The notes: generated by a model from the letters alone, not told the origin. A stretch of DNA of 64,000 nucleotides from an uncultured bacterium (GCA_963825135.1 CAWGRW010000009.1:2048001-2112000), one strand, 5' to 3'; numbered from the stretch's first letter, positions 32,396 to 54,624 are shown. Numbers and translations are program-made.

Positions 32396-32424
32396 TTATA
32401 CGCTGGGAATGTGAGAATGGATTC
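32396..32424 (-). promoter_or_regulatory. ECF-type promoter motif, copy 1
   Basis: GAATCC-N16-CGTATAA upstream of 32357. Confidence 0.65.
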
Positions 32425-32469
32425 ATTTTTATAGCGTCGAAATAATATTTGAAAAATACAGGGAAATCC

Positions 32470-32685
32470 TTATTTCTCCTGAAGAAAGCTTTTGGTAAGC
32501 TCTATCGTCTTTTTGTATGTATTGAGGAAGGCCACGCAGTCGGGGCATATTCCCAGGTGCTTCTCGAACTCCGCTTTGGTCTCCGGACTCAGCTCTCCGC
32601 TCAGGAAGTCCAGTATCAGGTTCGTCGCGTCCCTGCATGTGTCCACGTTCTCTGGTTTGTTCGTTGGAATTGATCGTATGGTCAT
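32470..32685 (-). CDS. Stand-alone zinc-binding (zf-HC2/ZAS) anti-sigma factor
   Basis: C...FLSGELS...HLGICPDC (HxxxCxxC); no TM segment; next to the ECF sigma gene. Confidence 0.88.
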   Translation of the reverse strand: MTIRSIPTNKPENVDTCRDATNLILDFLSGELSPETKAEFEKHLGICPDCVAFLNTYKKTIELTKSFLQEK

Positions 32686-32705
32686 GTTATCCCTTTTTTA
32701 TACGG

Positions 32706-32734
32706 TTAGACGTATAGAAAAAAGAATAGGATCC
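32706..32734 (-). promoter_or_regulatory. ECF-type promoter motif, copy 2
   Basis: GGATCC-N16-CGTCTAA upstream of the anti-sigma gene. Confidence 0.75.
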
Positions 32735-32827
32735 AAAATTAATATATATGTATGCAAATGCGAAGAATAGTCCGTTTCCAGTTTCGTGTAAATGCCCCGA
32801 TTTCCAGTGCCAACAGGCATTTATGAG

Positions 32828-33496
32828 CTATACAGCAGAATATCCAAGCTGTACCGCCAGTTTTGACCGGAGATATAGCCTTGCCCTGTGGAGTCTGCCT
32901 TTTACGGCCAGCACGCTCAGCCCCAGGACGTTTCCTATCTCCGGATTCGTCAGCTCTTCGATTTCACTCAGGACTATGACGGTCCTGTCCAGCGGCGAGA
33001 GCTCTTGCATCGCACTCTCTATTATCGTCTTTAGCTCCTTGTCGGCAACCTTCTTTTCAACCTCCTGCGACCAGTCGATCACAGGCCTCTCCGCGTGGTG
33101 TCCGTCGTCATCGAACCTCGGCATGTAGTCGTCGAGCGAGACAGTTCTCTCTCTCTTATTTTTTCTTAACTTGGAGATGGCTTCGTTTGTGATAAGCCTG
33201 TACAGCCAGGTCGAGAACTTGGAATCGGTGCGGAAGGTGTGGGCTTTTCTATAAATCGTAAGCGATACCTCCTGCACCACGTCCTCTGCGTCGGAATGGT
33301 CGTTAGTTACTTTCAAGGCCGTCCGGTAGATTCTTTCCCTGTACCGTCTGAGAATTTCATTGAGTGCTCCCTCGTCCCCGCCTTCTGCGATCAGGCCAAT
33401 CAGGCTCTCGTCAGCGACATTCGATATATCAGAGATTCGATCTCTGATCTTAAGACTCTCATTCCTTTCTACATTCCTATTATCGACCATGCTCAT
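32828..33496 (-). CDS. ECF-family sigma-70 factor
   Basis: DAEDVVQE, SKFSTWLYR, EIGNVLGLS..AVKGRLHRAR. Confidence 0.93.
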   Translation of the reverse strand: MSMVDNRNVERNESLKIRDRISDISNVADESLIGLIAEGGDEGALNEILRRYRERIYRTALKVTNDHSDAEDVVQEVSLTIYRKAHTFRTDSKFSTWLYRLITNEAISKLRKNKRERTVSLDDYMPRFDDDGHHAERPVIDWSQEVEKKVADKELKTIIESAMQELSPLDRTVIVLSEIEELTNPEIGNVLGLSVLAVKGRLHRARLYLRSKLAVQLGYSAV

Positions 33497-33522
33497 GATG
33501 TGCTACCCCCTGGATTTTTGTT

Positions 33523-33804
33523 TTATATCCGCTCATTGTCCACAAGATCGTTTAAAAGGGTCTTGATGAAAGCAGAGCATTTGACTATCTCCATGCGCTC
33601 GTCCTTTAACTTCGATAGCGCTTCCAAACCTTCGTCGTCAATAAAAGTCACGCCGGAAAAATCGAGTGTTATCGTTTTTTTGTTTCTGGCGCACGCGCAG
33701 TTGCAGGCTTGCTCCAGCTCCTCTACATACGGACCTTCAATTTTTCCGTCTATCTTCAGCGTGAGATTTTCGCTGTCCTGTTTTATTTTTGAAATCATAA
33801 GCAT
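33523..33804 (-). CDS. Small STAS-domain protein
   Basis: LKIDGKI...LDFSGVTFIDDEG STAS signature. Confidence 0.8.
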   Translation of the reverse strand: MLMISKIKQDSENLTLKIDGKIEGPYVEELEQACNCACARNKKTITLDFSGVTFIDDEGLEALSKLKDERMEIVKCSAFIKTLLNDLVDNERI

Positions 33805-33876
33805 TTATTCACCTTTCCTCGTTTTCTGGTTTTAATCCTGACTCACTATTCTGTGATGTCATTTGATGACTATAAG

Positions 33877-33892
33877 TGCAATTGCTGTGCCA
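33877..33892 (-). promoter_or_regulatory. Sigma54 (-24/-12) promoter driving the STAS and ECF sigma genes
   Basis: TGGCAC-AGCAA-TTGCA, an exact match to the TGGCAC-N5-TTGC consensus, about 70 bp upstream of the STAS start. Confidence 0.85.
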
Positions 33893-34192
33893 ATCGTAAA
33901 TTATTGTGTCTTGGCAGTCGTATCTCCCTTATATCATTCAACTATTGTCCATTCTTCGAAAATCAGCCGGAAAGATGTGACCAACCTTATCCATGAAATA
34001 TGGTGACAGTTACGAAATATCGTGGTTTTCAGGAAGAAGAAGTGGTATGCTATTTTACTAAATGGTCGTTTCAAACCGGCGCATCTTTTCTAAGCTATCT
34101 ATACAGAAGTCTTTTTAGTGAACGATATATGTATTCCTGTAATTGTTTTGATACACCGGGGCGTAAGGAATCCAAATAGGGGGTTTAGACAT

Positions 34193-36364
34193 ATGAGCGA
34201 TAATAGGCAATTAGAAGAAACTCACAATAGAGCGGAGATCGTATTCTCACAAAACCTCCCGGATTTACGCTCGAACGGAAATGACTATTATAAGGATCTC
34301 GAGATACTGAATCATCTCGCTCAGGGCACTGCTTCGGTCGTGGGCTCCAATTTCTTTAACTCGCTCGTTCATCACCTGGCATCGGCGATGAAGGTTCGTT
34401 ACGCGTTCATAGCCCAGTGCACGGACGACACGTTCACCAGGGTAAGGACTCTATCCTTCTGGGTGGATAACCATTTCGGCGAGAACATAGAATTCGAGCT
34501 TAAAGGCACTCCTTGCGAAAATGTTATCGCCGGAAACGTAAGCGTGTATCCCGACAGGCTCCAGTCGCTGTTCCCGGAGGATACGGGCCTGGTCGATATG
34601 AGCGCTCAGAGCTATCTCGGAATACCGATAAGGGACGCATGGGAAAATGTTCTGGGTCACATTGCCGTAATAGACGATAAGCCGATGGGTCATGAGCCCT
34701 TGGGTATAAACGTGCTGCAGATTTTCGCGGCCCGCGCGGGCGCCGAAATAGAGCGCAAGCGCGCCGAGGATTCCCTCAGGGAAAACTATATGGTGCTTGC
34801 GAAGAAGAACCGTTACGAAACCATAATAGGCAACGTCACGCGGATGGTGCATCAGTCCCTGAAGCCCGAAGAGGTTTTCGAGAACGCAGTCGATGCGCTC
34901 AGCAAGAATATAGAAAAGGTGAACTGCGCGGGAATATATTTGATAGAGGGGGATGAGGCCGTACTCAAGGCGCAAAGAGGGTACCCGGTAAAGTATCTGG
35001 AGTTCACGAGCCGGATCGTGCGTCCGAAAGGGTTTACTTGGGAGACCATAACGAAAGGGGAGCCGAATTATTGCCCCGATCTGGATACGGTGGCCGCGGC
35101 GAGCGTCGCTAGAAGGGCGGGGGTTAAAAGTTTTCTCTGTGTTCCCATCAGGAGCAGAGGGGGGGTTATTGGAACTCTGGATATAACTTCCTTCCATAAG
35201 AATGCTTTTGATGAGGACGAGCTAAAGCTCCTGGAAATCGTATCGAGGCAGATAGAGACGGCGGTGAACAATGCGAGACAAACAGCCGAGCTTAGGGAGT
35301 CTCAGCTGTCGCTGCAGATGGCGCTGGCAGAGGTCGAGGAGCTTAAAAACAGGCTTCAGATTGAAAACGTCTATCTGCGTGAAGAAATAAATACGGAGAA
35401 TAATTTCGAGGAGATCGTAGGCAGGTGCGATGAGATCAAGCGTGTTCTGGTCAGTGTCGGGCAGGTAGCGCGAACCGGGACGACAGTGTTGATTCATGGA
35501 GAGACAGGGACCGGAAAGGAGCTCGTCGCGCGCGCGATACATAACCTGAGTGACAGAAAGCACAGGACCCTCGTAAAGGTCAATTGCGGGGCTATATCGG
35601 CGGGGCTCGTGGAGAGCGAGCTCTTCGGCCACGAGAAAGGGGCGTTTACGGGTGCGCTGCAAAAGAGGGTCGGCAGGTTCGAGCTTGCTGACGGCGGTAC
35701 GATATTTCTGGATGAAGTGGGGGAGCTTCCTCCCGATGTGCAGGTGAAGCTGCTCAGGGTACTCCAGGAAGGCGAATTCGAAAGGGTAGGGAGCAGCGAA
35801 ACGATTAAGGTCGACGTAAGGGTTATAGCGGCCACAAACAGGGACCTCGAAGAAGCGGTAAGGGATAAATCATTCAGGTCCGACCTTTATTACAGGCTCA
35901 ACATCTTCCCTATATACGTACCTCCGCTTCGCGAGCGGAAACCGGACATCCCGCTGCTCGCTAATTTCTTCCTGACTAAATTTTCGAAAAAACTTGGCAA
36001 GGATTTTACCGGATTCTCCAATGGCACTCTGGACAGACTTCTCGATTACCACTGGCCGGGAAACATCAGGGAGCTCCAAAATATTGTGGAAAGGGCGGTC
36101 GTGATATCAAATTCACCCGTGATCGATATAGATGACTCGGTGCTCGGCAACGCGAATGGTTCATCCGCAAGCGCGGCCGAAGATAATAAGTCCCTCGAGG
36201 ATGTGGAACGTAATCATATAATCAGCGTGCTGGAGGAGTCAGGCTGGGTTATTGACGGCAAGAGGGGGGCTGCTACGGTGCTCAATATCAACCCCAATAC
36301 GCTCAGGTCTCGGATGAAAAAACTGGGCATAACCAAGCCCGAGCGTATGAACCGCGGCCTGTGA
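34193..36364 (+). CDS. Sigma54-dependent enhancer-binding activator (FhlA-like; GAF-GAF-AAA+-HTH)
   Basis: GETGTGKE, ESELFGHEKGAFTGA, FLDEVGE, DLYYRL, WPGNIREL, C-terminal HTH. Confidence 0.95.
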   Translation: MSDNRQLEETHNRAEIVFSQNLPDLRSNGNDYYKDLEILNHLAQGTASVVGSNFFNSLVHHLASAMKVRYAFIAQCTDDTFTRVRTLSFWVDNHFGENIEFELKGTPCENVIAGNVSVYPDRLQSLFPEDTGLVDMSAQSYLGIPIRDAWENVLGHIAVIDDKPMGHEPLGINVLQIFAARAGAEIERKRAEDSLRENYMVLAKKNRYETIIGNVTRMVHQSLKPEEVFENAVDALSKNIEKVNCAGIYLIEGDEAVLKAQRGYPVKYLEFTSRIVRPKGFTWETITKGEPNYCPDLDTVAAASVARRAGVKSFLCVPIRSRGGVIGTLDITSFHKNAFDEDELKLLEIVSRQIETAVNNARQTAELRESQLSLQMALAEVEELKNRLQIENVYLREEINTENNFEEIVGRCDEIKRVLVSVGQVARTGTTVLIHGETGTGKELVARAIHNLSDRKHRTLVKVNCGAISAGLVESELFGHEKGAFTGALQKRVGRFELADGGTIFLDEVGELPPDVQVKLLRVLQEGEFERVGSSETIKVDVRVIAATNRDLEEAVRDKSFRSDLYYRLNIFPIYVPPLRERKPDIPLLANFFLTKFSKKLGKDFTGFSNGTLDRLLDYHWPGNIRELQNIVERAVVISNSPVIDIDDSVLGNANGSSASAAEDNKSLEDVERNHIISVLEESGWVIDGKRGAATVLNINPNTLRSRMKKLGITKPERMNRGL

Positions 36365-36380: not shown

Positions 36381-38387
36381 TCAGCCCGTTTGCTGGTCGT
36401 TTTGATATTTTTCTATTTCTGTCCAGGCTCGTATAACCTCAGCCACGGTCCATGCTTGCGCGATGCACCCTCTGGGCGTCATCGGAGCGTCACCGTCGAA
36501 GATTTCACTCAGGCTGCCCACACCGTGCGAGCGCAGCTGTCCCAGCATGGGTATTAAAAAGCCCTTGGCCTTTTCTGTCTCCCCGTATGCTCTCAGGTGC
36601 GCCAGAGCAAAATGCCCGAGGAGCCAGCCCCATACGGTGCCCTGGTGGTACGCGCCGTCCCTCGACCTCGAATCGCCTCCGTAATGCCCTTTGTAGTCGG
36701 GGTGATCGGGCGAGAGGCTCCTGAGCCCGTGTGATGTCAGTAGGCTGAGCGCGCAGGCTTCGACGACTTTTTTCTGCCTATCCGAAGAGAGAGGGCTTTC
36801 CGGAAGGGATACGGCGAACAGCTGATTCGGTCTTAAAGACGGGTCATCGCCGGCCGGCCCGTCGATCACGTCGAAGCAGTAGCCGGTTTTTTCGTTCCAG
36901 AAGCGTGAAAACCCTTCAAGTGCTCTGGCTGCCGCGGATTCGTATTTTTTTGCGGGTTTTTCCAGTTGCCCGGCGAAACTCGCCATAGAGCGGAGGGCGT
37001 TGAACCAGAGGGCGTTTACCTCCACGGGTTTGCCGATACGGGGAGTGACCACCCAGTCTCCCACCTTGGCATCCATCCATGTGAGCTGCACCCCCGCCTC
37101 TCCCGCATAGAGGAGACCGTCTGTCGGATCGACCTTGATGTTATAACGGGTCCCCTTACTGTGCCAGTCGATTATTCCGTCCAGTATCGGAAACATCTCT
37201 TCGAGAAACGCTCTGTCTTTCGTGTCTTCGAAGTATGCGCGTACCGCCTCGAAATACCAGAGCGTCGCGTCGACCGTGTTGTATTCGGGCTTTTCCCCCG
37301 CGTCCGGGAAACGGTTGGGCAGCATCCCCATATCGACATAGGCTGAAAAGGTTTTGATTATCGACCTCGCGATTTCCGGGCGTCCCGTGGATATGGTCAG
37401 TCCGGGCAGGCTTATCATCGTATCTCTTCCCCAGTCCCCGAACCAGTGATACCCCGCTATGACGCTTTTGCCGTCTTTGTCCTGTCCGGAGGGCCTCCTT
37501 ACGATGAACTGATCCGCGGCCAGGGCCAGATGGCCGAGACCGGCATTTGTTTCCGCATAGTTGTTCTTTTGTTTGACTCTGAATCTTTTATTGATTTGTT
37601 CTTCATATTCCTTCCTCTGTCCGAGCGCCTTGTTTCCGTCTGTATCGGAAGATTGTTCCGTGCTGGCCGCGATATTGAAAGACTCGCCTTCCCGGAGTGT
37701 GCATGTCAGGTTCGCGGCGTGGAGGTGGTCTTCCAAATGATCGAGCCCCCTGTATTCTTCGAGCGCCAGATTGAAGCCGTAATACCAGTCGTCCGCCGTC
37801 TCCGTCTCCGCTTTATCCGTAAGGATACAAAAAGGCACGGCGCCGTCATAGGCGGTTATTCGTATTCCATTGCCGGTTCTTTCAACCTTCATCCTCCAGC
37901 CGCCCGCATGAGTCGAGCCGTGGTAATCCCTGTAGTTCACATATGCTTTTACGCTCATGCTCAGGGGCCGCGAGGCCCTTTTGAGCTCGTACCTGATATA
38001 TGTCGTATTGCTCCCCTGCGCCATCCATATTCGCTTCTCAAGGAGGGCGTCGGCGCAGGCGAAATCCCAGACGGGGATTGCGCCGTCGAGGTAAAACCTT
38101 TCGATGTTTACATACCCTTCGGGGCTGACCGTGCCGTCTGCCCACCGGTTTGAGCTGAGCGGATAATTCTTCCCTCCGTAAGTGACCGTCTCGTCAAGTT
38201 TCGTTACGAGAAGGTTCCTGCCGAGAGGGGGCTTGAGCGCCGCCACCAGGAGTCCGTGATATCTTCGAGAAAGTAAACCCGCGACCGTACCGGAGGCGAA
38301 CCCCCCTATACCGTTTGTCACGAGCCATTCCCTTTTTTCCGAGATTCCCGGCTCGCAGCTGATCTCCCTTCCGAATTCAATCGCCAT
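36381..38387 (-). CDS. Amylo-alpha-1,6-glucosidase / glycogen debranching enzyme (archaeal-type)
   Basis: EWLVTNGIGG, AGYHWFGDWGRDTMISLPG, LTWMDAK, AYHQGTVW, QAWTVAE. Confidence 0.92.
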   Translation of the reverse strand: MAIEFGREISCEPGISEKREWLVTNGIGGFASGTVAGLLSRRYHGLLVAALKPPLGRNLLVTKLDETVTYGGKNYPLSSNRWADGTVSPEGYVNIERFYLDGAIPVWDFACADALLEKRIWMAQGSNTTYIRYELKRASRPLSMSVKAYVNYRDYHGSTHAGGWRMKVERTGNGIRITAYDGAVPFCILTDKAETETADDWYYGFNLALEEYRGLDHLEDHLHAANLTCTLREGESFNIAASTEQSSDTDGNKALGQRKEYEEQINKRFRVKQKNNYAETNAGLGHLALAADQFIVRRPSGQDKDGKSVIAGYHWFGDWGRDTMISLPGLTISTGRPEIARSIIKTFSAYVDMGMLPNRFPDAGEKPEYNTVDATLWYFEAVRAYFEDTKDRAFLEEMFPILDGIIDWHSKGTRYNIKVDPTDGLLYAGEAGVQLTWMDAKVGDWVVTPRIGKPVEVNALWFNALRSMASFAGQLEKPAKKYESAAARALEGFSRFWNEKTGYCFDVIDGPAGDDPSLRPNQLFAVSLPESPLSSDRQKKVVEACALSLLTSHGLRSLSPDHPDYKGHYGGDSRSRDGAYHQGTVWGWLLGHFALAHLRAYGETEKAKGFLIPMLGQLRSHGVGSLSEIFDGDAPMTPRGCIAQAWTVAEVIRAWTEIEKYQNDQQTG

Positions 38388-38446
38388 AATCGAGTCTCCC
38401 TCCCGTTCCTGTCATCCGTATGCTGTGGATAATGGATACCATCAGA

Positions 38447-41143
38447 TTATGTGTGATCCCATTTTACCGCAATCCTTTTTTTATCCGTTTCGAGAGGCTG
38501 TGAGTATTCCGAGGTCTGCTGAATGAGCTTGGCAACCAGGCCTGTCCATCCGGTCTGGTGGCTCGCTCCGATTCCCGCTCCGTTGTCGCCGTGGAAATAT
38601 TCGTGGAAAGGTATATAACCCCTCCACTCAGGGTCGGTTTGAAACTTCTCTGTCCCGCCGAAAACAGGTCTCTTTCCCTGATCGTCCGTAAGGAAAATGC
38701 GTGTCAGCCTGCGGGAAATCTCTGCAGCGACCTCCCATAGTGTCATGTAGTTACCGGATCCGGTCGGACACTCTACTTTAAAATCGTCCCCCAGGTAATA
38801 GTGGAATTTCTGAAGGGATTCAATTATCAGGTAGTTAACCGGGAACCAGATCGGCCCGCGCCAGTTGGAATTTCCGCCGAAAAGTCCGCTCGTGGATTCC
38901 GCGGGCTCGTAATCGACCCTGTACTCGTTCCCGTTCACATGGAACCTGTAGGGATTATCTTTGTGAAACCTCGAAAGTGCGCGGATGCCGTAGGGACTGA
39001 AAAACTCCGACTCATCGAGCATCTTTTTCAGCATCCTTCTCAGCTTGCCCTCGTCCACGATCGAGAGGAGCCTTCTTTCGCGCATACCTTTGGTTTTCAT
39101 GCAGGCGACGTTTTCCCTCAGATCCGGGCGGTTTTCTATAAACCAGGCGAGCCTCCCGTTAAAACCCTTCAGGCTGTCGAGCACTTCGGGCTCGAGCGTC
39201 TGGATCGCGAACAGGGGTATAAGACCCACCATGGAGCGTACCTTCATGGGCAGGTGCTTGCCGTCCGGAAGGTGAAGCACGTCGTAGTAAAAGCCGTCCT
39301 CTTCGTTCCAAAGGCCGTCCATATCCCCGCCCAGGAGGTTCATGGCCTTCGCTATATAAAGAAAATGCTCATAGAATTTACTCGCTATGTCCTCGTAGCT
39401 CGGGTTCTCCTTCGCCAGCTCGAGCGCTATTGCCAGCATGTTAAGGCAGTACATACCCATCCAGCTCGTACCGTCGGCCTGTTCGATGTGACCGCCCGTC
39501 GGGAGCTGCGCGCTTCTGTCGAAGACGCCTATGTTGTCGAGCCCCAGAAAGCCTCCTTCGAAAACGTTTCTCCCCTCCCGGTCCTTCCTGTTCACCCACC
39601 AGGTGAAGTTAAGGAGGAGCTTTTGAAAGACGCTCTCCAGGAAGCGAAGGTCCTTCCTGCCGTACATTTTCTTTTCTATATTGTAGACCCTCCATGCCGC
39701 CCAGGCATGTACCGGCGGGTTTACGTCGCCGAACGCCCACTCGTAGGCGGGAATTTGCCCGTTGGGATGCATATACCATTCCCTCGTAAGCAGGGTCAGC
39801 TGACGCTTCGCGAATTCGGGATCGATAATCGCAAGTGGTATCGTATGGAATGCCAGGTCCCAGGCTGCGAACCACGGGTACTCCCATTTGTCGGGCATCG
39901 AGAGTATGTCGTCGTTATAGAGGTGCGCCCATTCACGGTTCCTGCCGTTTCTACGTTCGGGAGGAGGGGAGGGGTGATTGGGGTCTCCCTTGAGCCAGTC
40001 CTCTATGACATAGTAATAGTACTGCTTTGTCCACAGCATCCCCGCGAATGCCTGTCTCTGAACTGCTTTCGATTCTTCGCCGGCGTTGAAAGGGTTGATA
40101 CGCTCATAGAACTCGTCCGCCTCCCGCTTACGGTCCTCAAATACCTTTTCGAACTCCTGACCGAAGGGCGACGTGAGCTTGTTCGAATCGCTCAAGCGGA
40201 GCCTGATTATTTTTGTCCCTCCGCCGGGGATCTCTCCTGCGTATTGTGCGGACATTTTGGTCCCGGTCCCTGCAGCGTTCACCGCTTCTTTTTTCCCATC
40301 CACTATATAGTCATTGATGCCGTCCTTGACATAAGGTGAAGCGTTTTTGATTCCAAAGAGCTTCTCCGAATTGGTCTCGTTTTCCGTAAATAGAATCTCG
40401 TCCGGGTTCTCTATATAGAGCCATCTGTTTCCCAGTGTGGGGTGGTTGGCCTCGACGCGATTCTCTGCCTTATCAGGCCCGGTTTTGCTCAGAGAGGGCT
40501 TCACCCCGCCGTTCCAGGACCAAGTGTTCCTGAACCAGAGGGTAGGCAGGAGATGGAGTGCCGCGGTTTCGGGCCCTCTGTTGACAGCCGTTATCTTGAT
40601 GAGCACATCGTCGCCTGACGCCTTCGCATATTCGATAAAGATATCGAAATAGCGGTTGTCGTCGAACACCCCGGTGTTAATAAGCTCGTATTCGAGATCG
40701 TGTTTCCCCCTCCGCTTGTTCTCTTCGACGAGCTTTGCATAGGGGAATGCTTCATGGGGGTATTTGTATAAATACTTCATATAGGAATGGGTGGGCGTGC
40801 TGTCGAGATAGAAATAATATTCCTTAACGTCTTCTCCGTGATTCCCCTCGCTTCCGGTAAGTCCGAATATCCTCTCTTTGAGTATCTGGTCCTTACCGTT
40901 CCACAGCGCCAGCGCGAAGCAGAGTCTCTGGTGGTTGTCCGATATTCCGCCAATCCCGTCCTCTCCCCATCTGTACGCCCTCGAGCGGGACTGCTCGTGT
41001 GAAAAATAATCCCAGGCCGTACCGTAAGGACTGTAGTCCTCCCTCACCGTCCCCCACTGCCTTTCGCTCAGGTAAGGCCCCCACCTCTTCCAATGCGCTT
41101 TTTTCTGACTGTCTTCCTCGAGCCTTTTTTCTTCACTGGTCAT
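38447..41143 (-). CDS. GH63/MGH1-like glucosidase (intact paralog)
   Basis: [52 protein letters not shown]. Confidence 0.92.
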
Positions 41144-41190
41144 TTAATTCACTCCTTTTGGTTGCGGCTGGACGTATCATAGGGTCTCCA

Positions 41191-41538
41191 TTATCCGATC
41201 ATATCGAGGACCGTCTCCTCGAGCGACAGGTCCGGGCGGGGTCCGGCCCACGTAGCGGCTGTTTCTTCACCGTGTGTACGCCGGGAAGACTTATCCTCGT
41301 CGGGGAACGACACGATCATCACGACCTTATCCGAGAGCTTGCCGAAGGTCTCATTCTTGAGATGTCTCAGGAATATGAGGAGTTCCGACTTCTTCCCCTC
41401 GACCGTCGCGCCTGACGGGTTTAGCCGGTACCTGAGTCCCATCTCCTCTGAAAGAATAGCTATGGACATTACACAGTCGTTCAGGCTGAACGGCGTATCA
41501 AAGTCCACTGGATAGAGCGTGATTTTAAGACATATCAT
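41191..41538 (-). CDS. Small protein resembling the MTH1187/YkoF thiamine-binding fold
   Basis: ITLYPV...GLRYRLNPSGATVEG...ELL pattern; family call tentative. Confidence 0.55.
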   Translation of the reverse strand: MICLKITLYPVDFDTPFSLNDCVMSIAILSEEMGLRYRLNPSGATVEGKKSELLIFLRHLKNETFGKLSDKVVMIVSFPDEDKSSRRTHGEETAATWAGPRPDLSLEETVLDMIG

Positions 41539-41590
41539 GGCATTTCCCCTTTTTGTAAATAAGTTGTTCCTTGCGGACGTTTGTTATGCT

Positions 41591-41782: not shown

Positions 41783-41831
41783 TTTTTGTCTCTCCTGTGC
41801 CACCGGTGATTTTTCACAAATATTGCTAAGC

Positions 41832-42639: not shown

Positions 42640-42660
42640 TTCCTGCTCCTTGTAACGTGA

Positions 42661-45309: not shown

Positions 45310-45323
45310 TGTTATGGCCTCCG

Positions 45324-46166
45324 TTATTTGGATGCTGCTAGTGGAGCCGTACCGAAGTTGACGCCGAACCGTTCGCACCATATCGTCACTGAATGGTAGT
45401 CTGCAAGATTTATATCGGACGGTATCTCGTAGTTCTGGTCTCCGACGTTGCCCTTGAGCGGCCCAAGCTCCAGATAGCCGGCTTTGGTGACCGTGTCGTT
45501 ATCGTTCGCATCCTGAGCAGCGCCCAGGAATATGTGCACGTCGGGGCCGTTCGACGTCTCGAAGTCCGTGAGCCTGAGCACGCGCTTCCCGTCGGGGAGC
45601 TCGAATATCGCTGCCGTCCCTTTGGTCTCGTGCGCCACTCCATGGAAGCTGCCCTCGGATATACTTACCGGTCCGGAATTCGCGGCCGGAGCCGTTTTAA
45701 GAGGAGCGGTTCCGAAATTGACGCCGAATCGTTCGCACCAGATCGTCACGGAATTATATTTGCCCAGATCGGTGCCAGGAGGTATCTCGTAGTTCTGGTC
45801 TCCGACGTTGCCCTTGAGCGGCCCAAGCTCCAGATAGCCGGCTTTGGTGACCGTGTCGTTATCGTTCGCATCCTGAGCAGCGCCCAGGAATATGTGCACG
45901 TCGGGGCCGTTCGATGTCTCGAAGTCCGTGAGCCTGAGCACGCGCTTCCCGTCGGGGAGCTCGAATATCGCTGCCGTCCCTTTGGTCTCGTGCGCCACTC
46001 CGTGGAAGCTTCCTGCTTTTATCGTGCTGGTTGAATCGGCGTGCTCAGTGGAAGCGCCCGGCAGACCTTCGTTCACGCTCTTGTTGATAAACAGCTTCTC
46101 GGGCCTGAAAAGATACCAGGCTATCAGAATTACGATTATTCCCAATACTATAATAACTTTTCTCAT
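45324..46166 (-). CDS. Membrane-anchored tandem DM13-domain protein
   Basis: Two copies of GSFHGVAHETKG...NGPDVH...LKGNVGDQNY...IWCERFGVNFG. Confidence 0.9.
   Translation of the reverse strand: MRKVIIVLGIIVILIAWYLFRPEKLFINKSVNEGLPGASTEHADSTSTIKAGSFHGVAHETKGTAAIFELPDGKRVLRLTDFETSNGPDVHIFLGAAQDANDNDTVTKAGYLELGPLKGNVGDQNYEIPPGTDLGKYNSVTIWCERFGVNFGTAPLKTAPAANSGPVSISEGSFHGVAHETKGTAAIFELPDGKRVLRLTDFETSNGPDVHIFLGAAQDANDNDTVTKAGYLELGPLKGNVGDQNYEIPSDINLADYHSVTIWCERFGVNFGTAPLAASK
45421..46010. repeat. Near-identical 230-bp direct repeat (45421-45650 and 45781-46010), 360-bp period
   Basis: Direct comparison shows 2 mismatches in 230 bp. Confidence 0.95.
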
Positions 46167-46242
46167 CTCAGTGAAGCCTCCGTTTAATTTTGTAAGAGGC
46201 ATAAGCTGCTCATTGCCCATGCCGTACTTCGGATTTGGTACG

Positions 46243-47225: not shown

Positions 47226-47254
47226 GTATACGGAACCCGGGCGCTTTTGGATTT
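47226..47254 (-). promoter_or_regulatory. ECF-type promoter motif, copy 4
   Basis: AAATCC-N16-CGTATAC upstream of msrB. Confidence 0.65.
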
Positions 47255-47296: not shown

Positions 47297-47929
47297 TTAT
47301 CTCTGTGTTTCTCGCGGCGTCAGCCTCCCCGTGAGCGTATAAAACGGAAGCAGGAGCGCGTAGACGATCAGGAGTATCTCGATACTCCAGAAGCACAACA
47401 GCATTGTGATCGTCGCTATTATCGGTATGATGAGAAACCTGAACCGGACCGAATCCGCGTACTCGCGGGTTACAAAATCAGCGATAAGGTCGGGCTTAGA
47501 GCTCGCGTAAACCCACTGAAAATAAAGCGTCCAGCCTATGAGCGTGAGGTTAGCGCCGAAGAATAACGGGGCTATCTGTGTCTGGCCGAACGAGTTTATG
47601 AGGCTCGTGGAGAAAGGCAGCAGGGAGACGAACATAAAGAATAGTATGTTGAGCCAGAGCAGCACCCGGTCCGAATGCTTTATCGAATGGTACATGTAGT
47701 GATGCGCCACCCAGTAGATTCCGAGTCCGATGAAGCTCACTATATAAGAAAGGAACTTGGGCCACATATTGAAGAGCGCCGGGGCAAGCTGAACGTTAGA
47801 CGCGTGCTGGGGAAGATCCGATGTCTTGAGCTCGAATATGAGGAGCGTCATCACGATCGCGAATATGCCGTCGCTCAGCGCCTCGATTCTGTTCTTGCCT
47901 AATTCAAAGGGTTTGGCCCGGGTATCCAT
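47297..47929 (-). CDS. TMEM175 (DUF1211) family potassium channel
   Basis: RIEALSDGIFAIVMTLL, SFIGLGIYWVAHH, LLPFST. Confidence 0.88.
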   Translation of the reverse strand: MDTRAKPFELGKNRIEALSDGIFAIVMTLLIFELKTSDLPQHASNVQLAPALFNMWPKFLSYIVSFIGLGIYWVAHHYMYHSIKHSDRVLLWLNILFFMFVSLLPFSTSLINSFGQTQIAPLFFGANLTLIGWTLYFQWVYASSKPDLIADFVTREYADSVRFRFLIIPIIATITMLLCFWSIEILLIVYALLLPFYTLTGRLTPRETQR

Positions 47930-48009
47930 GGGTGTTACTCCTCCCTGTTAACAAGCGCTTCCCAGCGCATAGATATCGTTGTTTCCCTGCTGTGCCTGAT
48001 TGGCCTGGG

Positions 48010-49014
48010 CTAGGCTGTTTTGCGGGCGAGGTCTTCGTACCTGATATTCCAGTCCGCCTGCATGCCTATGTTTTTCAGTGTCGATAGCACGCGTCCCGGT
48101 TCACCGAGATCGCTCCATTGTACGTCCTTCACGGCAAGGACCATGAGGTTGTCGGTGGATATCTCGAGCACTCTCTGTGAGAAATTGGCCTGGGTAATTT
48201 TTTCGTAGATATAATCCACTGCGTCGCTTTCCGAAGGGGTGCCTATCATATCGGACGACCTCACGAAATCGCGGTAGAGCACGGGGAGAGACCTGCTGAT
48301 CATGCCGAGGAAGGCAGATACCCTTCCCGTCATGACGAAACTATTCCAGAGACAGCCTCCTTGCAGCAGCTCGACGGCGGTTTTTTTGTCCGGCTTCTCC
48401 CAGAACCGTCTGACCCGTTTTGGAGCTGCCGGGGATTCGCTTGCGAGTCCGGTGCAGGGCTCGATCCATCCGTATTCCGTTTCGGCCGAGCTCGGGGTGA
48501 TCCCGAGCAGTACCACCATATCCTGATTGCGCTCTACGGCTTCGAAAGCCGTTTCGACCTGTCCCATGAACACCTCGTCATCGGACAGATAATGGTCCGA
48601 AGGGAAAAACGTGACGGACGCATCGGGGTCGACCCTGGCGATCCGGAGCAGGCTGTAGAGAATCGCGGGAGCTGTTCCCAGGTTCGCGGGTTGATCCACG
48701 ATCTGGTCGGGTTTGAATCTGTCGAAGAGGTAATTATAGAATCTTTCGTGGGTACGTGTGACGGACAGGAGTATATTACCGCTCTGTATGCGGGCCCTCA
48801 CCCGTTTAATCGTCCTCTCTAGAAGAGACTCTTCCCCCAGAATGGGACAGAATTGCTTCGGTCTCTCGTCTCCCGTTATCAGTTTCGTCATGGAGCGGAG
48901 CCGTGTACCGTCGCCGCCTGCCAGAATAATCCCCCACCTGTGGAGCTCGGATTCCTTTTTAATCTCCTTTCCGTCTTCGTCCCCGATCCTGTGAGTAGTC
49001 GGATGTTTTTTCAT
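48010..49014 (-). CDS. Sugar-phosphate nucleotidyltransferase (mannose-1-phosphate guanylyltransferase-like)
   Basis: ILAGGDGTRL, PKQF, FPSDH, EYGWI, FWEKP, WSDLG. Confidence 0.88.
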   Translation of the reverse strand: MKKHPTTHRIGDEDGKEIKKESELHRWGIILAGGDGTRLRSMTKLITGDERPKQFCPILGEESLLERTIKRVRARIQSGNILLSVTRTHERFYNYLFDRFKPDQIVDQPANLGTAPAILYSLLRIARVDPDASVTFFPSDHYLSDDEVFMGQVETAFEAVERNQDMVVLLGITPSSAETEYGWIEPCTGLASESPAAPKRVRRFWEKPDKKTAVELLQGGCLWNSFVMTGRVSAFLGMISRSLPVLYRDFVRSSDMIGTPSESDAVDYIYEKITQANFSQRVLEISTDNLMVLAVKDVQWSDLGEPGRVLSTLKNIGMQADWNIRYEDLARKTA

Positions 49015-49048
49015 GAGTGTGTCCTTGTGGTTCCGTTTCTTTTTTTGT

Positions 49049-50689
49049 CTAATTATAATGCGCATTCGCTCCCTGTATACCGAGGCGCATCATATATAAT
49101 CCGCTCTGGGCGCATAGAAAGAGCGTCTTTCCGTCTTCCCCGCCCCAGGCCATGTTGTGTACGTGCCTGGGAGCGATAATGGTCCCTATGTGCTTTCCGC
49201 CCGCTGAAATCACCCAGATACCGCCCGGGCCCGAGACATAGAGGTTCCCCCGGGAATCGACTTTTATACCGTCGATTGCGTCCTCACCCGGGGCTTCCGT
49301 CATATCGAAGAAGCGCTCCCCCTCCGATAACGTGCCGTCTTTTTTAACTTCATAGCGCATTACGACTTTGTTTTCCGGGTCCCAGTTCCCGACGTAGAGA
49401 TGCTTTTCATCGGGCGAGAATGCTATTCCGTTGGGCCCCTTCAACTCCTTATTCAATAAGACGATTTGACCGTCAGGAGATATCCGGTATACCCCGCTCC
49501 AGGGGATTTCTTTCCTGGGGTCGTTCTCGAACATCGGAAGTCCGAAGGGCGGGTCCGTGAAGTATAGGGAGCCGTCCGACTTGTAAACGAGGTCGTTGGG
49601 GCTGTTAAGCCTCTTGCCCTCGTAGCTGTCGGCAAGCACCGTGACTGCCCCGTCCTTCTCGATTCTCGAAACCCTGTGGTTTCCGTGCTCGTCGATTGTG
49701 AGTCTGCCTTCTTTATCGAGAGCGAGGCCGTTTGATCCGGGCTGCTTAAATTCGGCTATGTCGGAGCCTGAATACCCGCTCGGTTGACGGAATATGGAGA
49801 GCTCCCCGTCCTTCGAGATTTTATAGATAATATTGCTGTTGGGGTCGCTGAAGAGAAGGTATTCACCGTCGTTTACCCAGACCGGGCCCTCGGTGAATTT
49901 GAATCCTTCGGCGAGCTTGAATATCTTCGGGTTAGGCCCGGCTATAGCGTCCATAGCGGGATCGAGCCTTACTACCTCTACATTCACCTCTGAAGGCGTT
50001 ACCGCTATCGGCGCCTCGCTCCCCTCGTAGAACTCAAGCTTTGCCTCCCTCATCCATATGAAATTGGTCGGCGGGTTGGATATAGGTCCGTTAATGCCGA
50101 AGACCGCGAGCTGGATGGTATCTCCCGGCTTCACGTCTCGCCCTATTACAAGCCTGTTGGCTGCGTTCCATCCCGCTATAACGGAGCCGCCCGCCTGACC
50201 GAGGTACCGGGCGAGCTCGCCGTTTACCCAGACCTCTGCGTAGTCGTCAATCGCGGTCTCGAATACGACTGTCGAACCTTCGGTAGCGAAACCGCCGACG
50301 CTTTCAGGGATCGTTACCCTGATCCGGTACCAGTTGAAGCATATCCTGCCCGTCGAACGGCGCTGGCTCAGGGTCTCGGGCGCGATCTTTTCCCATTTCG
50401 AGTCGTCGTAATCGGCGCCGCCCGCTTTTGGCGTGTAGTCATATGTTTTGACGGGGGCCCCCGTGGGCTGATTGTCGGTCCCCGGGCCCTTGAAATCGAC
50501 TTCGGTTATCTTGACGTCGCTGTAGAGCCACTGCCCTTTTACCTCCTCTGCCCCCTCCGAAGTAGCGAGATCGATGACGGCGGCGGGCTTCCCGTTCGGA
50601 ACGTCAACAGGCTCGACACTGCGGGCGACGAGCGCAGATATGATGGATAAAAGAAATACGGCCGTGTATATGATGGATTCGAGTATCAT
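49049..50689 (-). CDS. Secreted SMP-30/gluconolactonase-family protein with N-terminal sugar-binding-like domain
   Basis: FTEGPVW, LNSPND, YFTDPPFG, PNGIAFSPD, DGIKVD; N-terminal WYR...IDDYAEVWVNG jelly-roll. Confidence 0.88.
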   Translation of the reverse strand: MILESIIYTAVFLLSIISALVARSVEPVDVPNGKPAAVIDLATSEGAEEVKGQWLYSDVKITEVDFKGPGTDNQPTGAPVKTYDYTPKAGGADYDDSKWEKIAPETLSQRRSTGRICFNWYRIRVTIPESVGGFATEGSTVVFETAIDDYAEVWVNGELARYLGQAGGSVIAGWNAANRLVIGRDVKPGDTIQLAVFGINGPISNPPTNFIWMREAKLEFYEGSEAPIAVTPSEVNVEVVRLDPAMDAIAGPNPKIFKLAEGFKFTEGPVWVNDGEYLLFSDPNSNIIYKISKDGELSIFRQPSGYSGSDIAEFKQPGSNGLALDKEGRLTIDEHGNHRVSRIEKDGAVTVLADSYEGKRLNSPNDLVYKSDGSLYFTDPPFGLPMFENDPRKEIPWSGVYRISPDGQIVLLNKELKGPNGIAFSPDEKHLYVGNWDPENKVVMRYEVKKDGTLSEGERFFDMTEAPGEDAIDGIKVDSRGNLYVSGPGGIWVISAGGKHIGTIIAPRHVHNMAWGGEDGKTLFLCAQSGLYMMRLGIQGANAHYN

Positions 50690-51183
50690 TGTTTCTCTCC
50701 TGGATTTTCGGTCTCGCTTACCGCCGATGCTCCGACTATTGCGATATCTTCGTCTTCCTGCGGGGTGTTTCCGCTGACGCCGATTGCGCCCGCCACCTTG
50801 CCGCTAATGATGATCGGTATCCCTCCCTGGAGAGGCGTCGCACCCGGAAGCGCGAGCGCCGCAACCCGGCCCTCGCGAATCTGGTCCTCGAATACCTTGC
50901 TCGGCCGCCTGAATATGGCGGCTGTGCGCGCCTTACCTATCCCCACTTCGACGCTCGCCACCTGAGTATCGTCCAGGCGCTCGAGGAGTATCAGATGCCC
51001 GCCGTCGTCGACGACCGCTATCACCACTGTCGCGCCTCTCCTGGCCGCTTCCTTCTCCGCGGCCTCGACCGCTTTCTTCGCTGCTCCCAGGGTGAGGATC
51101 GGTTTTACTGGAGTCTCGGCTTCGGCCGCGAGCACAGCGGGTATCGTCAGAATTAATAGAAGAGTGGATATTATTTTTTTCAT
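50686..51183 (-). CDS. GlcG/HbpS-family heme-binding protein (secreted)
   Basis: IAVVDDGG, GKARTAA, LQGGIPI, GAIGVSG. Confidence 0.88.
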   Translation of the reverse strand: MKKIISTLLLILTIPAVLAAEAETPVKPILTLGAAKKAVEAAEKEAARRGATVVIAVVDDGGHLILLERLDDTQVASVEVGIGKARTAAIFRRPSKVFEDQIREGRVAALALPGATPLQGGIPIIISGKVAGAIGVSGNTPQEDEDIAIVGASAVSETENPGEKQ

Positions 51184-51201
51184 TTTCGCTCTCTCCCCGA
51201 C

Positions 51202-52062
51202 CTAACCAACCTTGACTACGTAATAGAGGAGCGGACCGTTCACTGTCTTAAACCAGTGAGGGACGCCGGCCGGCACGATGATCACGTCACCGGGCTTGAT
51301 CTCGCGCGGCTCACCCCCTGAGATCTCTTTCCCTCGTATCTCATCGGGCGCAATTGACTTGCCTTCGACGACTGTCCCTTCCGTCACGAACATGGCGGAC
51401 CCTTCGAGGACATAGATGATGTCCGTATCTTTGGTATGGACCTCCGCGACGCCCGGCTCGGTTCTGCGGCTCGCATGTACTTTGTAGCCGGCCGTCTCTG
51501 TGAGCGGCATGCCCTTGGCGAATGCAGCCTTGACCTCACTATTGTCGAAGTAAGTGACGGGAGCGGTGCTCATCTCTGCGGATGAACCGTTCATTAGCGC
51601 GCCGGCCCCTGCGAGCGCGAGCTCTTCGTCCTGCTGTGCGCTGGATGCACCGCTCACTCCGACGGCTCCCACAATCTCCCCGTTGATCGTTATCGGCACC
51701 CCGCCCTGGAGGGGGGTGAAGTCCTGAAGGGCGACCATGCTGGTGCGCCCGTTCTTGATTACGTCTTCAAAAAACTTGGTCGGCTTCTTAAAAAGAGCGG
51801 CCGTCCTCGCCTTTCCGATGGAAATATTCGCGCCTGCCGCAAACGTCCCGTCGATACGCTCAAGCGCCATCAGGTTTCCGCCGTCGTCCACGACCGCTAC
51901 TACCGCGCCCGGAGCGTTCAGTCTTTTTGCCTCGGCCATGGCCGCTGCGATCACGATATCGGCGCCCTCGAGCGTGAGTGATTTCTTCTCCGCCACCTGC
52001 GCCTCCGCTGACACGGCGCACGTAAAAAGCAGTATTGCCAAAACCAGTTCGATAATCTTCAT
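51202..52062 (-). CDS. GlcG/HbpS domain fused to a cupin domain (secreted)
   Basis: GlcG motifs followed by AEVH...YVLEG...GDVIIVPAGVPHWF. Confidence 0.85.
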   Translation of the reverse strand: MKIIELVLAILLFTCAVSAEAQVAEKKSLTLEGADIVIAAAMAEAKRLNAPGAVVAVVDDGGNLMALERIDGTFAAGANISIGKARTAALFKKPTKFFEDVIKNGRTSMVALQDFTPLQGGVPITINGEIVGAVGVSGASSAQQDEELALAGAGALMNGSSAEMSTAPVTYFDNSEVKAAFAKGMPLTETAGYKVHASRRTEPGVAEVHTKDTDIIYVLEGSAMFVTEGTVVEGKSIAPDEIRGKEISGGEPREIKPGDVIIVPAGVPHWFKTVNGPLLYYVVKVG

Positions 52063-52095
52063 TATTAATCCCTCCCGGAATTTATCTGACTCTGA

Positions 52096-52135
52096 ACGGC
52101 CGGCTTGTCTCTCGATATGAAACACGGCCGGCCGT
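52096..52135. other. Intergenic stem-loop within the operon
   Basis: ACGGCCGGC...GCCGGCCGT inverted repeat. Confidence 0.5.
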
Positions 52136-52155
52136 CACATGATTTGATTCACTGT

Positions 52156-52569
52156 TTAATTCATCGCCGCTGCGAACGGAGCCTCGCCGAGCAGGGCTTG
52201 CGCGTATGCGCACCAGATCTGGACCTTTGCTACATCGTGCACGTATGAGGGCACCGTGATTGACTTATTAATCTTGTCACCCTTTATGGGCAGGCGCTCC
52301 AGCAGGTAAACGTTGCCTTTCGAATCCACGACCTGCCAGTGTGGGTCGGGGGTCCCCGGTACTACGAAATCGTCGGAGAGCGTAAGGACGGTTTTGCCCC
52401 CGTCTTTCGTGAGCGTCACGGTACCGCCGTTTACCTTAGCGCCCGAGAACGGCTGCGAAGTCATCTGATCCGCGGCGTAGCCGGCCGCTGCCCCGATTAT
52501 CAGCACGAGAAGCATAACGATCGAAACAACGCCTGATTTAATACTCGTCGACTTAAAAGAGCTAAGCAT
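52156..52569 (-). CDS. Secreted DM13-like small protein
   Basis: Signal peptide; LSDDF..PGTPDPHW...VQIWC...LLG resembles a divergent DM13 domain. Confidence 0.65.
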   Translation of the reverse strand: MLSSFKSTSIKSGVVSIVMLLVLIIGAAAGYAADQMTSQPFSGAKVNGGTVTLTKDGGKTVLTLSDDFVVPGTPDPHWQVVDSKGNVYLLERLPIKGDKINKSITVPSYVHDVAKVQIWCAYAQALLGEAPFAAAMN

Positions 52570-52603
52570 TTTACTTCCTCCTGTGTTAGTGTTTTTAAAT
52601 CTT

Positions 52604-53437
52604 CTAAATTAAGCTTCTTACTTTTTCCGTCGCCAGATTCATATTCTCGGACTTTACCTCTCCCGGATACCCGCAGTGAATGCACCGCTTGTTGTTCTGA
52701 TGGTGGAGCTTCGCGCACGATACCGCGTTCGCCCCTTTAACGCGGACATAAACCTCCGCGGCCAGCAGCATCCCGAATAAAGGAGCCGTAAAGTAGATCC
52801 ATAGCCCGCTATGGTTGTTCGCGAAGAGGCTCGAGCCGAGAGAGCGCGCCGGGTTCATGCTCATTCCCGAGATCGGGGCCTCGAACGTGATGTAAGTCGC
52901 TACGAGCAATCCGGCGAAGAGCCCCGTGTACCTCGCGATGCTCGGGGTGTTCGATACGGTGAGCACGACCGTCATGAGGATGAACGAGATGACCGCCTCC
53001 GCAATAAAAGCGATTATCACCCCTTGCATACCCGGAAAGGTGGCTGCGTAGTTCACGTGGGGGTGCGATGCGATCCTGCCGATTAATATGTGAGCGATAA
53101 GCACGCCTGCCGCCGCTCCTGCGAACTGGGCTATTACGTAAAACGCCGCGTCCCAGGCCTTTACCTTGCCGAGCCTGAGGAATGTGAGGGTTACTGACGG
53201 GTTGATGTGCGCGCCTGACTGCTTGCCCCAGGGAGAATAGATGATGGATATCGCGGTCAGACCCATTGCCATACCCATCAGCACTCTCCTGGTCATCGGG
53301 TCGGGTATTGCGCCATGGACCGGAGAAGAGGGGTGCTCTAGAAGCGCCACGAATAAGCACGCGGATATCATAAAGAACCCGAGCCCGGCGGCTTCGATCA
53401 GGTATTCGGGCCAATGATTTTTCAGTATTGTCAGCAT
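52604..53437 (-). CDS. MIP/aquaporin with Cys/His-rich C-terminal tail
   Basis: SGAHINPS and GMSMNPARS; tail CAKLHHQNNKRCIHCG. Confidence 0.9.
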   Translation of the reverse strand: MLTILKNHWPEYLIEAAGLGFFMISACLFVALLEHPSSPVHGAIPDPMTRRVLMGMAMGLTAISIIYSPWGKQSGAHINPSVTLTFLRLGKVKAWDAAFYVIAQFAGAAAGVLIAHILIGRIASHPHVNYAATFPGMQGVIIAFIAEAVISFILMTVVLTVSNTPSIARYTGLFAGLLVATYITFEAPISGMSMNPARSLGSSLFANNHSGLWIYFTAPLFGMLLAAEVYVRVKGANAVSCAKLHHQNNKRCIHCGYPGEVKSENMNLATEKVRSLI

Positions 53438-53455
53438 GGCGGTATTGACCCTATT

Positions 53456-54562
53456 TCAGTTAAGCGGAGCTACTTCGCAGAAGACTTTAATCGCGCCTTT
53501 CGCGTTTGTGAGGGTGTTCATGAGCTCTTTGTAGTTTTCGAGTCCTTTGACCGGGTGAGTGAGGAAATTGGAAATCCACCCCGGCCATTCATGCTCCGCG
53601 TGCGAAATGTCTTTTACGCCCATCTCGAAGTATTCGCGGTTCGCGTTGACGGTTCCCACGACTACCTTGTTACCCAGGACGAATCCGAGGTTTATCATGT
53701 CGCAAGGCACTTCGACCTTCCGGTCCCCTCCCGTAACGCTCGAGAGCACGAGGACGCCGTTCTTACCAAGGCAATTCATCGCCTCGAACACGATTGGAGA
53801 GAAGCCCGTCGCCTCGAAGATTATGTCGAAAGGACCGTGTTTGTCCGCCGCTTGCATAATATTTATTTCGTCTGTCGTGTGGTAATGCGCACCGATCTGT
53901 TCTATCAGGTCCGAGTTCAGGTACGGGGCTTTGGTCCTGCCGAATACATGTACCTGCATACCCCTCAATCTGAGGGCCATGGCGGCGAGGAGACCGATGG
54001 TCCCGGCTCCCAGCACCGCCGCGCGCTTCGGGCGCCAAACGCGGAGGCGTCTCTGTATCTCGTAAGCCTGGGCAATGCCCTTTTCGATGACACTCGTGGG
54101 CTCGAGGAGAACTCCGAATTCCTTCAAGCCCCTAGGGACTTTCACGAGGTATTCGGGATCCTCAACATAATATTCAGTCAGGAAGCCGTGGAGGAGGTTT
54201 ATTCCATGCTCAAAGTAGTTGTCGTCGGTCGTCGTATCGTACTTGCCAATTTTGTCGTAGATGCTTCCGCCGGGTCTCCTGACAGTGGCCGTGACGTAGT
54301 CTCCGGGGACGAACTCCGTGACGTTCTTTCCCACTTCCTCGACTATCCCGAAGCTCTCGTGTCCTATCACCAGAAAATCGTATCCGGTAGGCGCGGCCCC
54401 GTACTCGGCGGCGTTTATCTCCTTATCCGTTCCGTCCACCCCCACGCGCAGTACTTTCACCAACACCCCGCGCCCGTCCGGTATCTCGTTTATATTGGGC
54501 TTCGGGAGCTCCGTAAGGTGAACGCTGCCCGGCTTGCCCGGAATGACTCCTATCGCTTTCAT
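53456..54562 (-). CDS. Zn-dependent (MDR) glucose 1-dehydrogenase, archaeal-like
   Basis: GVDGTD, GHESFG, VRRP, GAGTIG, EATG, GTVNA. Confidence 0.85.
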
Positions 54563-54595
54563 AAATCCGCTCTCCTTGGTACTAAAGTTGCCAAG

Positions 54596-54624
54596 TTAGA
54601 CGAACGTATGGCGGGGATGGATTT
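54596..54624 (-). promoter_or_regulatory. ECF-type promoter motif, copy 5
   Basis: AAATCC-N16-CGTCTAA upstream of the glucose dehydrogenase operon. Confidence 0.75.

Follow-up and report, generated by a model that had tools for sequence, protein, structure and literature searches.

The ECF locus and its promoter motif

A 64,000-nucleotide stretch of DNA from an uncultured bacterium (GCA_963825135.1, CAWGRW010000009.1:2048001-2112000; henceforth termed the window) encodes a sigma factor of the extracytoplasmic function (ECF) type, coined W, amid five copies of a promoter-like motif, RRATCC-N16-CGTMTA. On the minus strand, the genes run from a stand-alone STAS protein through W and a soluble zinc-finger anti-sigma factor (ZAS) to a small secreted-type protein. 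W matches PF04542 and PF08281 with no region 1.2 or region 3 match, as ECF (group 4) sigma factors are defined, and scores 104 bits against TIGR02937 (cut-off 42.9). Its close homologues carry Candidatus Dadabacteria or Thermodesulfobacteriota labels, and the host is taken as that lineage. The ZAS is a zf-HC2 protein with no additional domain, and its residues C17, H43, C47, and C50 are invariant in an alignment of 24 sequences. Anti-anti-sigma factors of the SpoIIAA/RsbV type carry a conserved phosphorylatable serine and act with a kinase anti-sigma partner. The STAS protein does not fit this type: its FIDxxG segment (FIDDEG here) has no conserved serine at that position in 22 sequences, its TIGR00377 score of 20.6 falls below the cut-off of 53.45, and a Pfam scan of the W locus yielded no kinase gene.

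The sequence-only reading had described the five motif copies, all on the minus strand with a 16-bp spacer and just upstream of genes, as a local regulon of W. Three carry CGTCTAA (C-class) and two CGTATA (A-class). All five lie at the coordinates given there, 21–42 nt from site end to the downstream start codon, and compare with a mean of 0.09 copies in shuffled windows (maximum 2; none of 100 shuffles reached 5). Throughout the 3.13-Mb genome, the strict pattern occurs 17 times at spacer 16, compared with one to six times (mean 2.8) for every one of the 17 other spacer lengths between 8 and 25 (Poisson p 7e-9). The window makes up 2% of the genome yet holds five of the 17 matches (p 2e-5). 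Seven of the 12 outside matches lie directly 5′ of a gene, four within open reading frames (ORFs), and one has no gene behind it; overall, about 12 of the 17 precede genes and about five look like chance. Outside targets recognized by Pfam are DUF547, an EgtD-like methyltransferase, fasciclin, and SnoaL, while an alpha/beta hydrolase, a second msrB, and a secreted protein were named from their translations. Because genome-wide matches lie upstream of distant genes too, the motif is not only local, and the notion of a purely local regulon was abandoned. Each of the nine same-genus genomes holds 8–16 copies (reversed-pattern controls 0–1), and the other 31 relatives hold 0–10. At the level of sequence, these data confirm the motif as genuine and conserved and support its reading as an ECF-type promoter signal. 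A position weight matrix trained on 49 C-class sites, which were picked by regular expression and hence are not independent of the pattern, gave no further convincing site in the window; a weak match at 47824 is intragenic. The pattern RRAACY-N16-CGTMTA was rejected as a large second regulon, as its counts did not exceed the reversed control, and pattern counts of 1–2 in Binatia-type genomes, equal to control level, show no large regulon there.

W itself has no such site upstream, a feature that the earlier reading had missed. No motif copy occurs in the 350 bp upstream of W, nor before the STAS gene. Instead, the operon lies behind a conserved sigma-54 promoter element, a tandem imperfect repeat suggestive of an enhancer (upstream activating sequence, UAS), and a divergent activator gene, which led us to reject W as a canonical autoregulated ECF with a target promoter 5′ of its own gene or operon. 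The sigma-54 pattern was matched in 21 of 26 STAS-bearing loci (missed in L235, L241, L124, L126, and L127), and TGGCA and TGC are invariant in 18/18 aligned loci, all selected from loci with a pattern match. The tandem repeat is conserved as far as Binatia-labelled loci and occurs only once in the genome, which also encodes rpoN; the activator's input domain gave generic GAF matches only. W is thus predicted to be transcribed via the sigma-54 promoter, the enhancer, and the divergent activator. One exception is the relative G013, in which GAATCT-N16-CGTACA lies upstream of W and both the STAS gene and the activator are absent from that locus. Elsewhere in the genome, an RpoD-like gene (C9:1788862-1790019) also has a sigma-54 element, 141 nt upstream.

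Of 22 Dadabacteria-type loci, which come from two families, 18 have an exact xxATCH-N16-CGTCYAA site between W and the ZAS gene, always with C; two of the remaining four have one mismatch and two have no site. Since no terminator-like site was found between both genes, the ZAS may be transcribed from both promoters. The sigma and anti-sigma genes of Binatia-type loci are only 12–22 bp apart with no internal site, and for this reason the feedback promoter looks Dadabacteria-specific. Binatia- and delta-labelled loci (L121-L129) share the activator-STAS-ECF-ZAS block, behind which come another ZAS gene, a glucose dehydrogenase (GDH) gene, and a MIP gene; the sigma in these loci carries Thr172, and A at -32 is frequent in sites close by. 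In other relatives (L056 13416-14502, L260, L261, L327), sigma-54/STAS/ECF modules contain ECFs of other clades, suggesting that the STAS gene travels with the activator and the sigma, not with the zinc anti-sigma. A metagenome scan, dominated by generic ECFs, yielded only four W-type loci among 80.

Table 1. Features of the W locus and its candidate target genes (window positions).
Feature	Position	Strand	Basis or remark
117-aa protein, signal-peptide-like N-terminus (by eye)	32004..32357	-	no Pfam family; orthologues align from residue 1
A-class site GAATCC-N16-CGTATAA	32396..32424	-	5′ of secreted-protein gene; pattern match and genus orthologues
ZAS, soluble, 71 aa	32470..32685	-	zf-HC2, Pfam PF13490, 44 bits
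C-class site GGATCC-N16-CGTCTAA	32706..32734	-	between sigma and anti-sigma; predicted feedback promoter
ECF sigma factor W, 222 aa	32828..33496	-	F88/S92 loop, S108, K199-G200-R201-L-H203-R204
Stand-alone STAS protein, 93 aa	33523..33804	-	PF01740, 26.5 bits
Sigma-54 -24/-12 element TTGGCAC-N5-TTGCA	33877..33893	-	sole window match, chance 0.01
Tandem imperfect repeat, predicted enhancer (UAS)	33992..34024	-	about 100 bp upstream of sigma-54 element
Divergent GAF-AAA+-HTH sigma-54 activator	34118..36364	+	GAFTGA and Walker A intact
Inferred C-class operon: DM13, GMC oxidoreductase, glyoxalase, FMN reductase, DUF2934, thiamine-BP-like, GH63/MGH1-like, glycogen debranching enzyme	36381..46220	-	same strand, short gaps; Pfam
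C-class site AAATCC-N16-CGTCTAA	46243..46271	-	5′ of DM13; also in other genera
msrB (SelR), N-terminal signal-like segment	46570..47184	-	Pfam
A-class site AAATCC-N16-CGTATAC	47226..47254	-	5′ of msrB
Inferred C-class operon: GDH, MIP channel, hypothetical, two HbpS-like proteins, SMP-30/gluconolactonase, nucleotidyltransferase, TMEM175-like channel	47297..54562	-	layout and Pfam
C-class site AAATCC-N16-CGTCTAA	54596..54624	-	5′ of GDH

Elsewhere in the window, close to the island of W and its target genes, 21865-24581 and 25999-27659 hold another GH63/MGH1-like gene, which may be split in two, together with an additional MIP gene and a DUF2092 gene, with no motif copy; at positions 5-10321, rpoB-rpoC have a leuS-like gene for a class I tRNA synthetase immediately behind them.

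Two classes of -10 element

Both site classes share the -35 box RRATCC and the 16-bp spacing and differ in a single -10 base. Among genus orthologues, this base is constant for each promoter while the spacer sequences diverge. It is C before the anti-sigma gene (9/9), DM13 (5/5 scored), and GDH (8/8), and A before the secreted-protein gene (9/9), msrB (8/8), fasciclin (9/9), and DUF547 (4/4), with genomes left out of a count where no orthologue lay within the loci fetched. The DM13 site of G003, whose row ran off a locus edge, was read separately and also has C. The site before the secreted-protein gene additionally shows G at -34 in 8/9 orthologues, and the GDH site accompanies its gene after rearrangement. 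Island sites in other genera comprise 20 with C and one with A. Sites beside ECF loci of the SigK/RskA and ChrR types, whose neighbours include fasciclin, SelR, and DUF4331, read CGTATA with one CGTCCA exception. Because A is fixed at two sites, C at three, and CGTATA recurs beside these other ECF loci, the five sites probably belong to two regulons, not one. Of the earlier proposal that W targets all five, the part concerning the three CGTCTAA sites (anti-sigma, DM13-GMC, and GDH) likely stands, whereas the two CGTATA sites are probably not read by W.

The distribution of W among relatives bears on this split. In a comparison of 38 genomes from two families outside the genus, in which kin are not independent and from which 72 genomes of other families were left out, C-class counts average 2.69 in genomes with W (n=13, including G023 with a split W gene) and 0.84 in those without (n=25; controls 1.15 and 1.00). 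In these genomes, C-class counts do not track SigK-like sigmas and A-class counts do not track W. Across 20 inspected stretches, C matches in W genomes lie mostly 5′ of GDH, DM13, MIP, or anti-sigma genes, and those in W-less genomes are mostly intra-ORF. C sites likewise precede GDH, DM13, MIP, or anti-sigma genes in G023, G036, G042, and G043, which have W and no SigK-like match. A GDH orthologue is present in 17 of the 19 genomes with W, and also in three where W was not detected.

Within the genus, assembled deletions of W are seen in G001, G004, and G009. GDH is lost or truncated in all three and DM13-GMC is lost in two, while msrB and the secreted-protein gene are kept; A-class counts in these genomes are 11, 12, and 18, compared with 10–16 in other genus members. 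The island is decaying through deletions and frameshifts (L040, L041, L042, L043), and the ZAS gene is intact in all three genomes without its sigma. G006, a 500-contig assembly lacking the whole region, is uninformative on W loss.

Candidate readers of the two site classes

The genome encodes 22 sigma-70 proteins, of which nine are ECFs, and with nine ECFs adjacency is insufficient to assign a reader. The non-ECF members in this 3.1-Mb genome (G000) are eleven RpoD-like and two RpoH-like proteins. To compare recognition residues, RpoE numbering was carried over to these ECFs through alignments. Published work links Arg175 with T at -32, and positions 64 and 68 with the -10 base (PMC7776599); it describes a highly stringent reading of the -10 base by loop L3 (PMC8103513), and presents the -10 pocket of the RpoE-like F64/S68 loop as strict for one base (PMC8103513, PMC6648896). 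The loop of W is of this RpoE-like kind and invariant in 26/26 sequences. Three ECFs in the genome have F64/S68, and W alone among them combines it with a CG-favouring residue at position 84 (Ser 0.46 vs Met 0.08 for CG in PMC7776599 dataset S3). Among Binatia-type loci, four with Thr172 show A at -32 in the -35 box (one with a 15-bp spacer), three others have GGCATCC-N17-CGTAGAA, and one has nothing; we treat the coincidence of Thr172 with A at -32 as a lead, amounting to a single phylogenetic contrast.

Two SigK-like ECFs, C9:462754 and C9:222337, have RskA neighbours and carry Arg175, the residue associated with T at -32. The first has an RskA-type anti-sigma at +1 (PF10099 at C9:463888, 79.7 bits), an ECF19-like feature, and its nearest structures are 2q1z and 4nqw. 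An assignment to ECF18 was rejected, as the two conserved sigma4 cysteines are absent and there is no Cys in the C-terminal domain. Its locus (L001 2715-5295, C9:461714-464294) has two tandem ECF genes before rskA; the first is absent at that locus in several relatives, where the upstream GAAACC-N16-CGTATA stays. At L002 3177-4922 (C9:221175-222921), the SigK-like ECF and rskA are divergent and a conserved TAAACC-N16-CGTATA points at rskA only, so that this ECF is, after W, another candidate case of a sigma driving its anti-sigma but not itself. In seven genus members, a ChrR-cupin anti-sigma and its ECF are encoded upstream of fasciclin; this ECF is missing here and in G004 (L144 9115-10289, G000 C9:1185114-1186290, against L135, L136, L138, L139). 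This genome also lacks the msrB-DUF4331-TPR genes that otherwise follow fasciclin, and the promoter sites remain.

From the observed sites, their conservation, the C/A split, gene layout, and co-occurrences, we infer both the sigma-to-promoter assignments and the physiology. Our favoured reading, to which we give slightly better than even odds (about 0.55), is that two ECFs share the -35 box RRATCC and differ in the -10 base, with W likely reading the three CGTCTAA sites and a SigK-like ECF the two CGTATA sites. In this circuit, a signal would activate the divergent GAF-AAA+ protein, which would bind the tandem enhancer and open the sigma-54 promoter of STAS-W, as the conserved elements suggest. 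The targets of W would then be the operons of GDH and of DM13-GMC, some genes further away, and, through the site between both genes, its own zinc anti-sigma. The outcome would be negative feedback instead of the usual self-amplification, such that the response may shut itself off. Separately, a SigK-like ECF, with C9:462754 and its RskA as best candidate, would fire msrB, the secreted-protein gene, fasciclin, and DUF547. Judged by Pfam names only, the C-class outputs might turn stored glucans or glucosides into glucose and on to gluconate for reducing power, and supply detoxification enzymes and channels.

Several observations weigh against this assignment. The -10 base flips between C and A at four orthologous promoters: the EgtD site is C here and A in 3/3 relatives checked, the second msrB site is A in two genomes and C in one, the secreted-protein site at 32396 has the C-form in other genera, and a lipoprotein site carries C in genus members but A in G049. 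One tolerant sigma would account for these flips as well. A-class counts show no clear relation to SigK-like sigmas (7.1 vs 5.7, p 0.14); the high count of 15 in G041 consists mostly of sites inside ORFs, judging by the 13 checked. ATCC-N16-CGTAAA precedes msrAB in G036 and G045, where no SigK-like sigma was found. Other-clade F64/S68 ECFs in G047 and G049 adjoin CGTATAT sites, which would make the loop rule less than absolute, although these sites are also next to a SigK-like gene or an RskA remnant and may be those of the SigK-like gene. W has His175 (its His203, invariant in 26/26) in spite of the T at -32 described for Arg175. Finally, C sites are intact in the three W-deleted genomes. As the remnants there are 80–89% identical to this genome's proteins, like intact orthologues, the losses look recent, in which case surviving C sites say little; we set their persistence aside as proof against W.

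The strongest competitor, which we consider doubtful, is that W tolerates either base (CGTMTA), reads all five sites, and controls about 12 promoters across the genome in the genus. It draws on the common -35 box and spacing, the four flips, the A-type site before msrAB in genomes without a detected SigK-like sigma, the G013 site upstream of W itself, and a motif count that is large only in the genus in which W is ancestral. With one sigma for all sites, the system would reduce to an ordinary ECF regulon with sigma-54 input. This reading is at odds, however, with a -10 base fixed per promoter at seven genes across four to nine genomes, with A-class counts no lower and A-class genes surviving after W loss while GDH decays, with A-type sites beside SigK and ChrR loci, and with the stringency of ECF -10 pockets described in PMC8103513. 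The reverse proposal, in which an Arg175-bearing SigK-like ECF (C9:462754 or C9:222337) reads every site and W uses another, unseen promoter, was our initial reading, as His175 in W and Arg175 in the SigK-like ECFs first pointed away from W. The motifs of ECF11, ECF18, and ECF19, with ATC at -35, CGTA or CG at -10, and fasciclin, SelR, and DUF4331 as neighbours, also suit it, as does the persistence of every site where W is deleted. We now deem it improbable: C sites precede the same genes in W genomes with no SigK-like match, C counts stay at background where SigK-like sigmas occur without W, and two families retain the site that separates W from its anti-sigma gene.

Still less probable is a role for another paralogue, C9:990168 or C9:461842, as the reader of one class or of both. 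Both have F64/S68 loops, a conserved RRAACY-N16-CGTATA lies upstream of C9:461842, and the related ECFs in G047 and G049 stand beside AAATCC-N16-CGTATAT. Both paralogues, however, have Met84, without CG preference in the accessible part of PMC7776599 dataset S3; C9:461842 is absent at its locus in several genus members where the upstream site stays, and no motif recurs beside C9:990168 orthologues. That the sites are chance matches or bind a non-sigma regulator is hardly credible: although about five of the 17 genomic matches look like chance, enrichment is specific to spacer 16, both boxes are conserved around a diverged spacer at a fixed distance from gene starts, and the sites move with their genes through rearrangements.

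Building on the favoured two-sigma reading, we tentatively advance a broader view, which as a whole is more likely wrong than right. It holds that two ECF stress regulons of Dadabacteria share one -35 box and lie one -10 base apart, so that genes (EgtD, the second msrB, the secreted-protein gene, the lipoprotein) could be handed over by one-letter changes. W would be a sigma-54-driven pulse generator that makes its ZAS but not itself, would supply a promoter for ECF270, and would read T at -32 with His175 against the published code. Natural promoter pairs one -10 base apart would offer a test set for the ECF specificity code and for the design of orthogonal switches.

Relation to known systems

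The -10 loop relates W to E. coli RpoE (ECF02), with an FRxDS loop and C at the flipped -10 base (PMC6648896, PMC8103513). Unlike RpoE, W would read RRATCC instead of GAACTT at -35, has a soluble ZAS instead of RseA, and has no site upstream of the sigma gene. The A-class sites match the ATC -35 and the CGTA or CG -10 elements given for ECF11, ECF18, and ECF19 (Rhodobacter RpoE-ChrR, LitS, and SigK-RskA) in PMC7826278, which lists fasciclin, SelR, and DUF4331 as ECF18 neighbours; C9:462754 and C9:222337 resemble these sigmas. In contrast to those motifs, many A-class sites have A, not G, at -34. W was rejected as a member of these groups because of its invariant His175, its F64/S68 loop, and a stand-alone ZAS in place of RskA or ChrR.

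By description, W resembles ECF270, which in PMC7826278 has a soluble ZAS at +1 and no conserved upstream promoter, as expected for a non-autoregulated sigma. That source places the group in Deltaproteobacteria, Ignavibacteriae, and Nitrospirae, and W homologues carry Deltaproteobacteria and Ignavibacteriales labels. The likeness is one of description only, and ECF271, ECF293, and ECF12 also have a soluble ZAS. The ECF270 entries seen mention no sigma-54 activator, STAS gene, or promoter motif, all three of which are present here. W fits the ECF270 description, and the CGTCTAA sites are possibly the first promoter for an ECF270-like sigma. A promoter and a regulon open to testing would thus become available for an ECF lineage that has no experimentally studied member, within a phylum that is uncultured. 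Pipelines based on upstream motifs would miss this promoter, as W's own site lies behind the sigma gene. Among eight "CGTCT" promoter descriptions in the part of the PMC7826278 supplement at hand, none has an ATCC -35. Literature on Dadabacteria sigma factors, on sigma-54-driven ECFs with anti-sigma feedback, on the motif together with its genes, and on ECF270 contained no description of the circuit in titles or the start of abstracts, in a search that left subscription papers largely uncovered.

In overall design, the predicted circuit is a variation on known regulation, namely an HrpL-like cascade with zinc anti-sigma feedback. In the HrpRS-sigma-54-HrpL system of Pseudomonas syringae (ECF32; PMC5376354, PMC8999054), an enhancer-binding protein and sigma-54 likewise act on an ECF that serves a promoter set, and an ECF-dependent product likewise exerts negative feedback. 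The W locus has the corresponding sigma-54 promoter, enhancer, and activator upstream of the ECF, all recognized in the DNA. HrpL is listed without an anti-sigma, with feedback through HrpV on HrpS and promoter occlusion, whereas here a ZAS has its own ECF-type promoter. Unlike in HrpL systems, moreover, the operon begins with a STAS gene, and the predicted target genes serve sugar oxidation and stress. A placement of W in ECF32 was rejected, given the ZAS at +1 and no secretion genes among the predicted targets. The conserved chain of sigma-54, ECF, and anti-sigma would thereby extend the HrpL design beyond plant pathogens.

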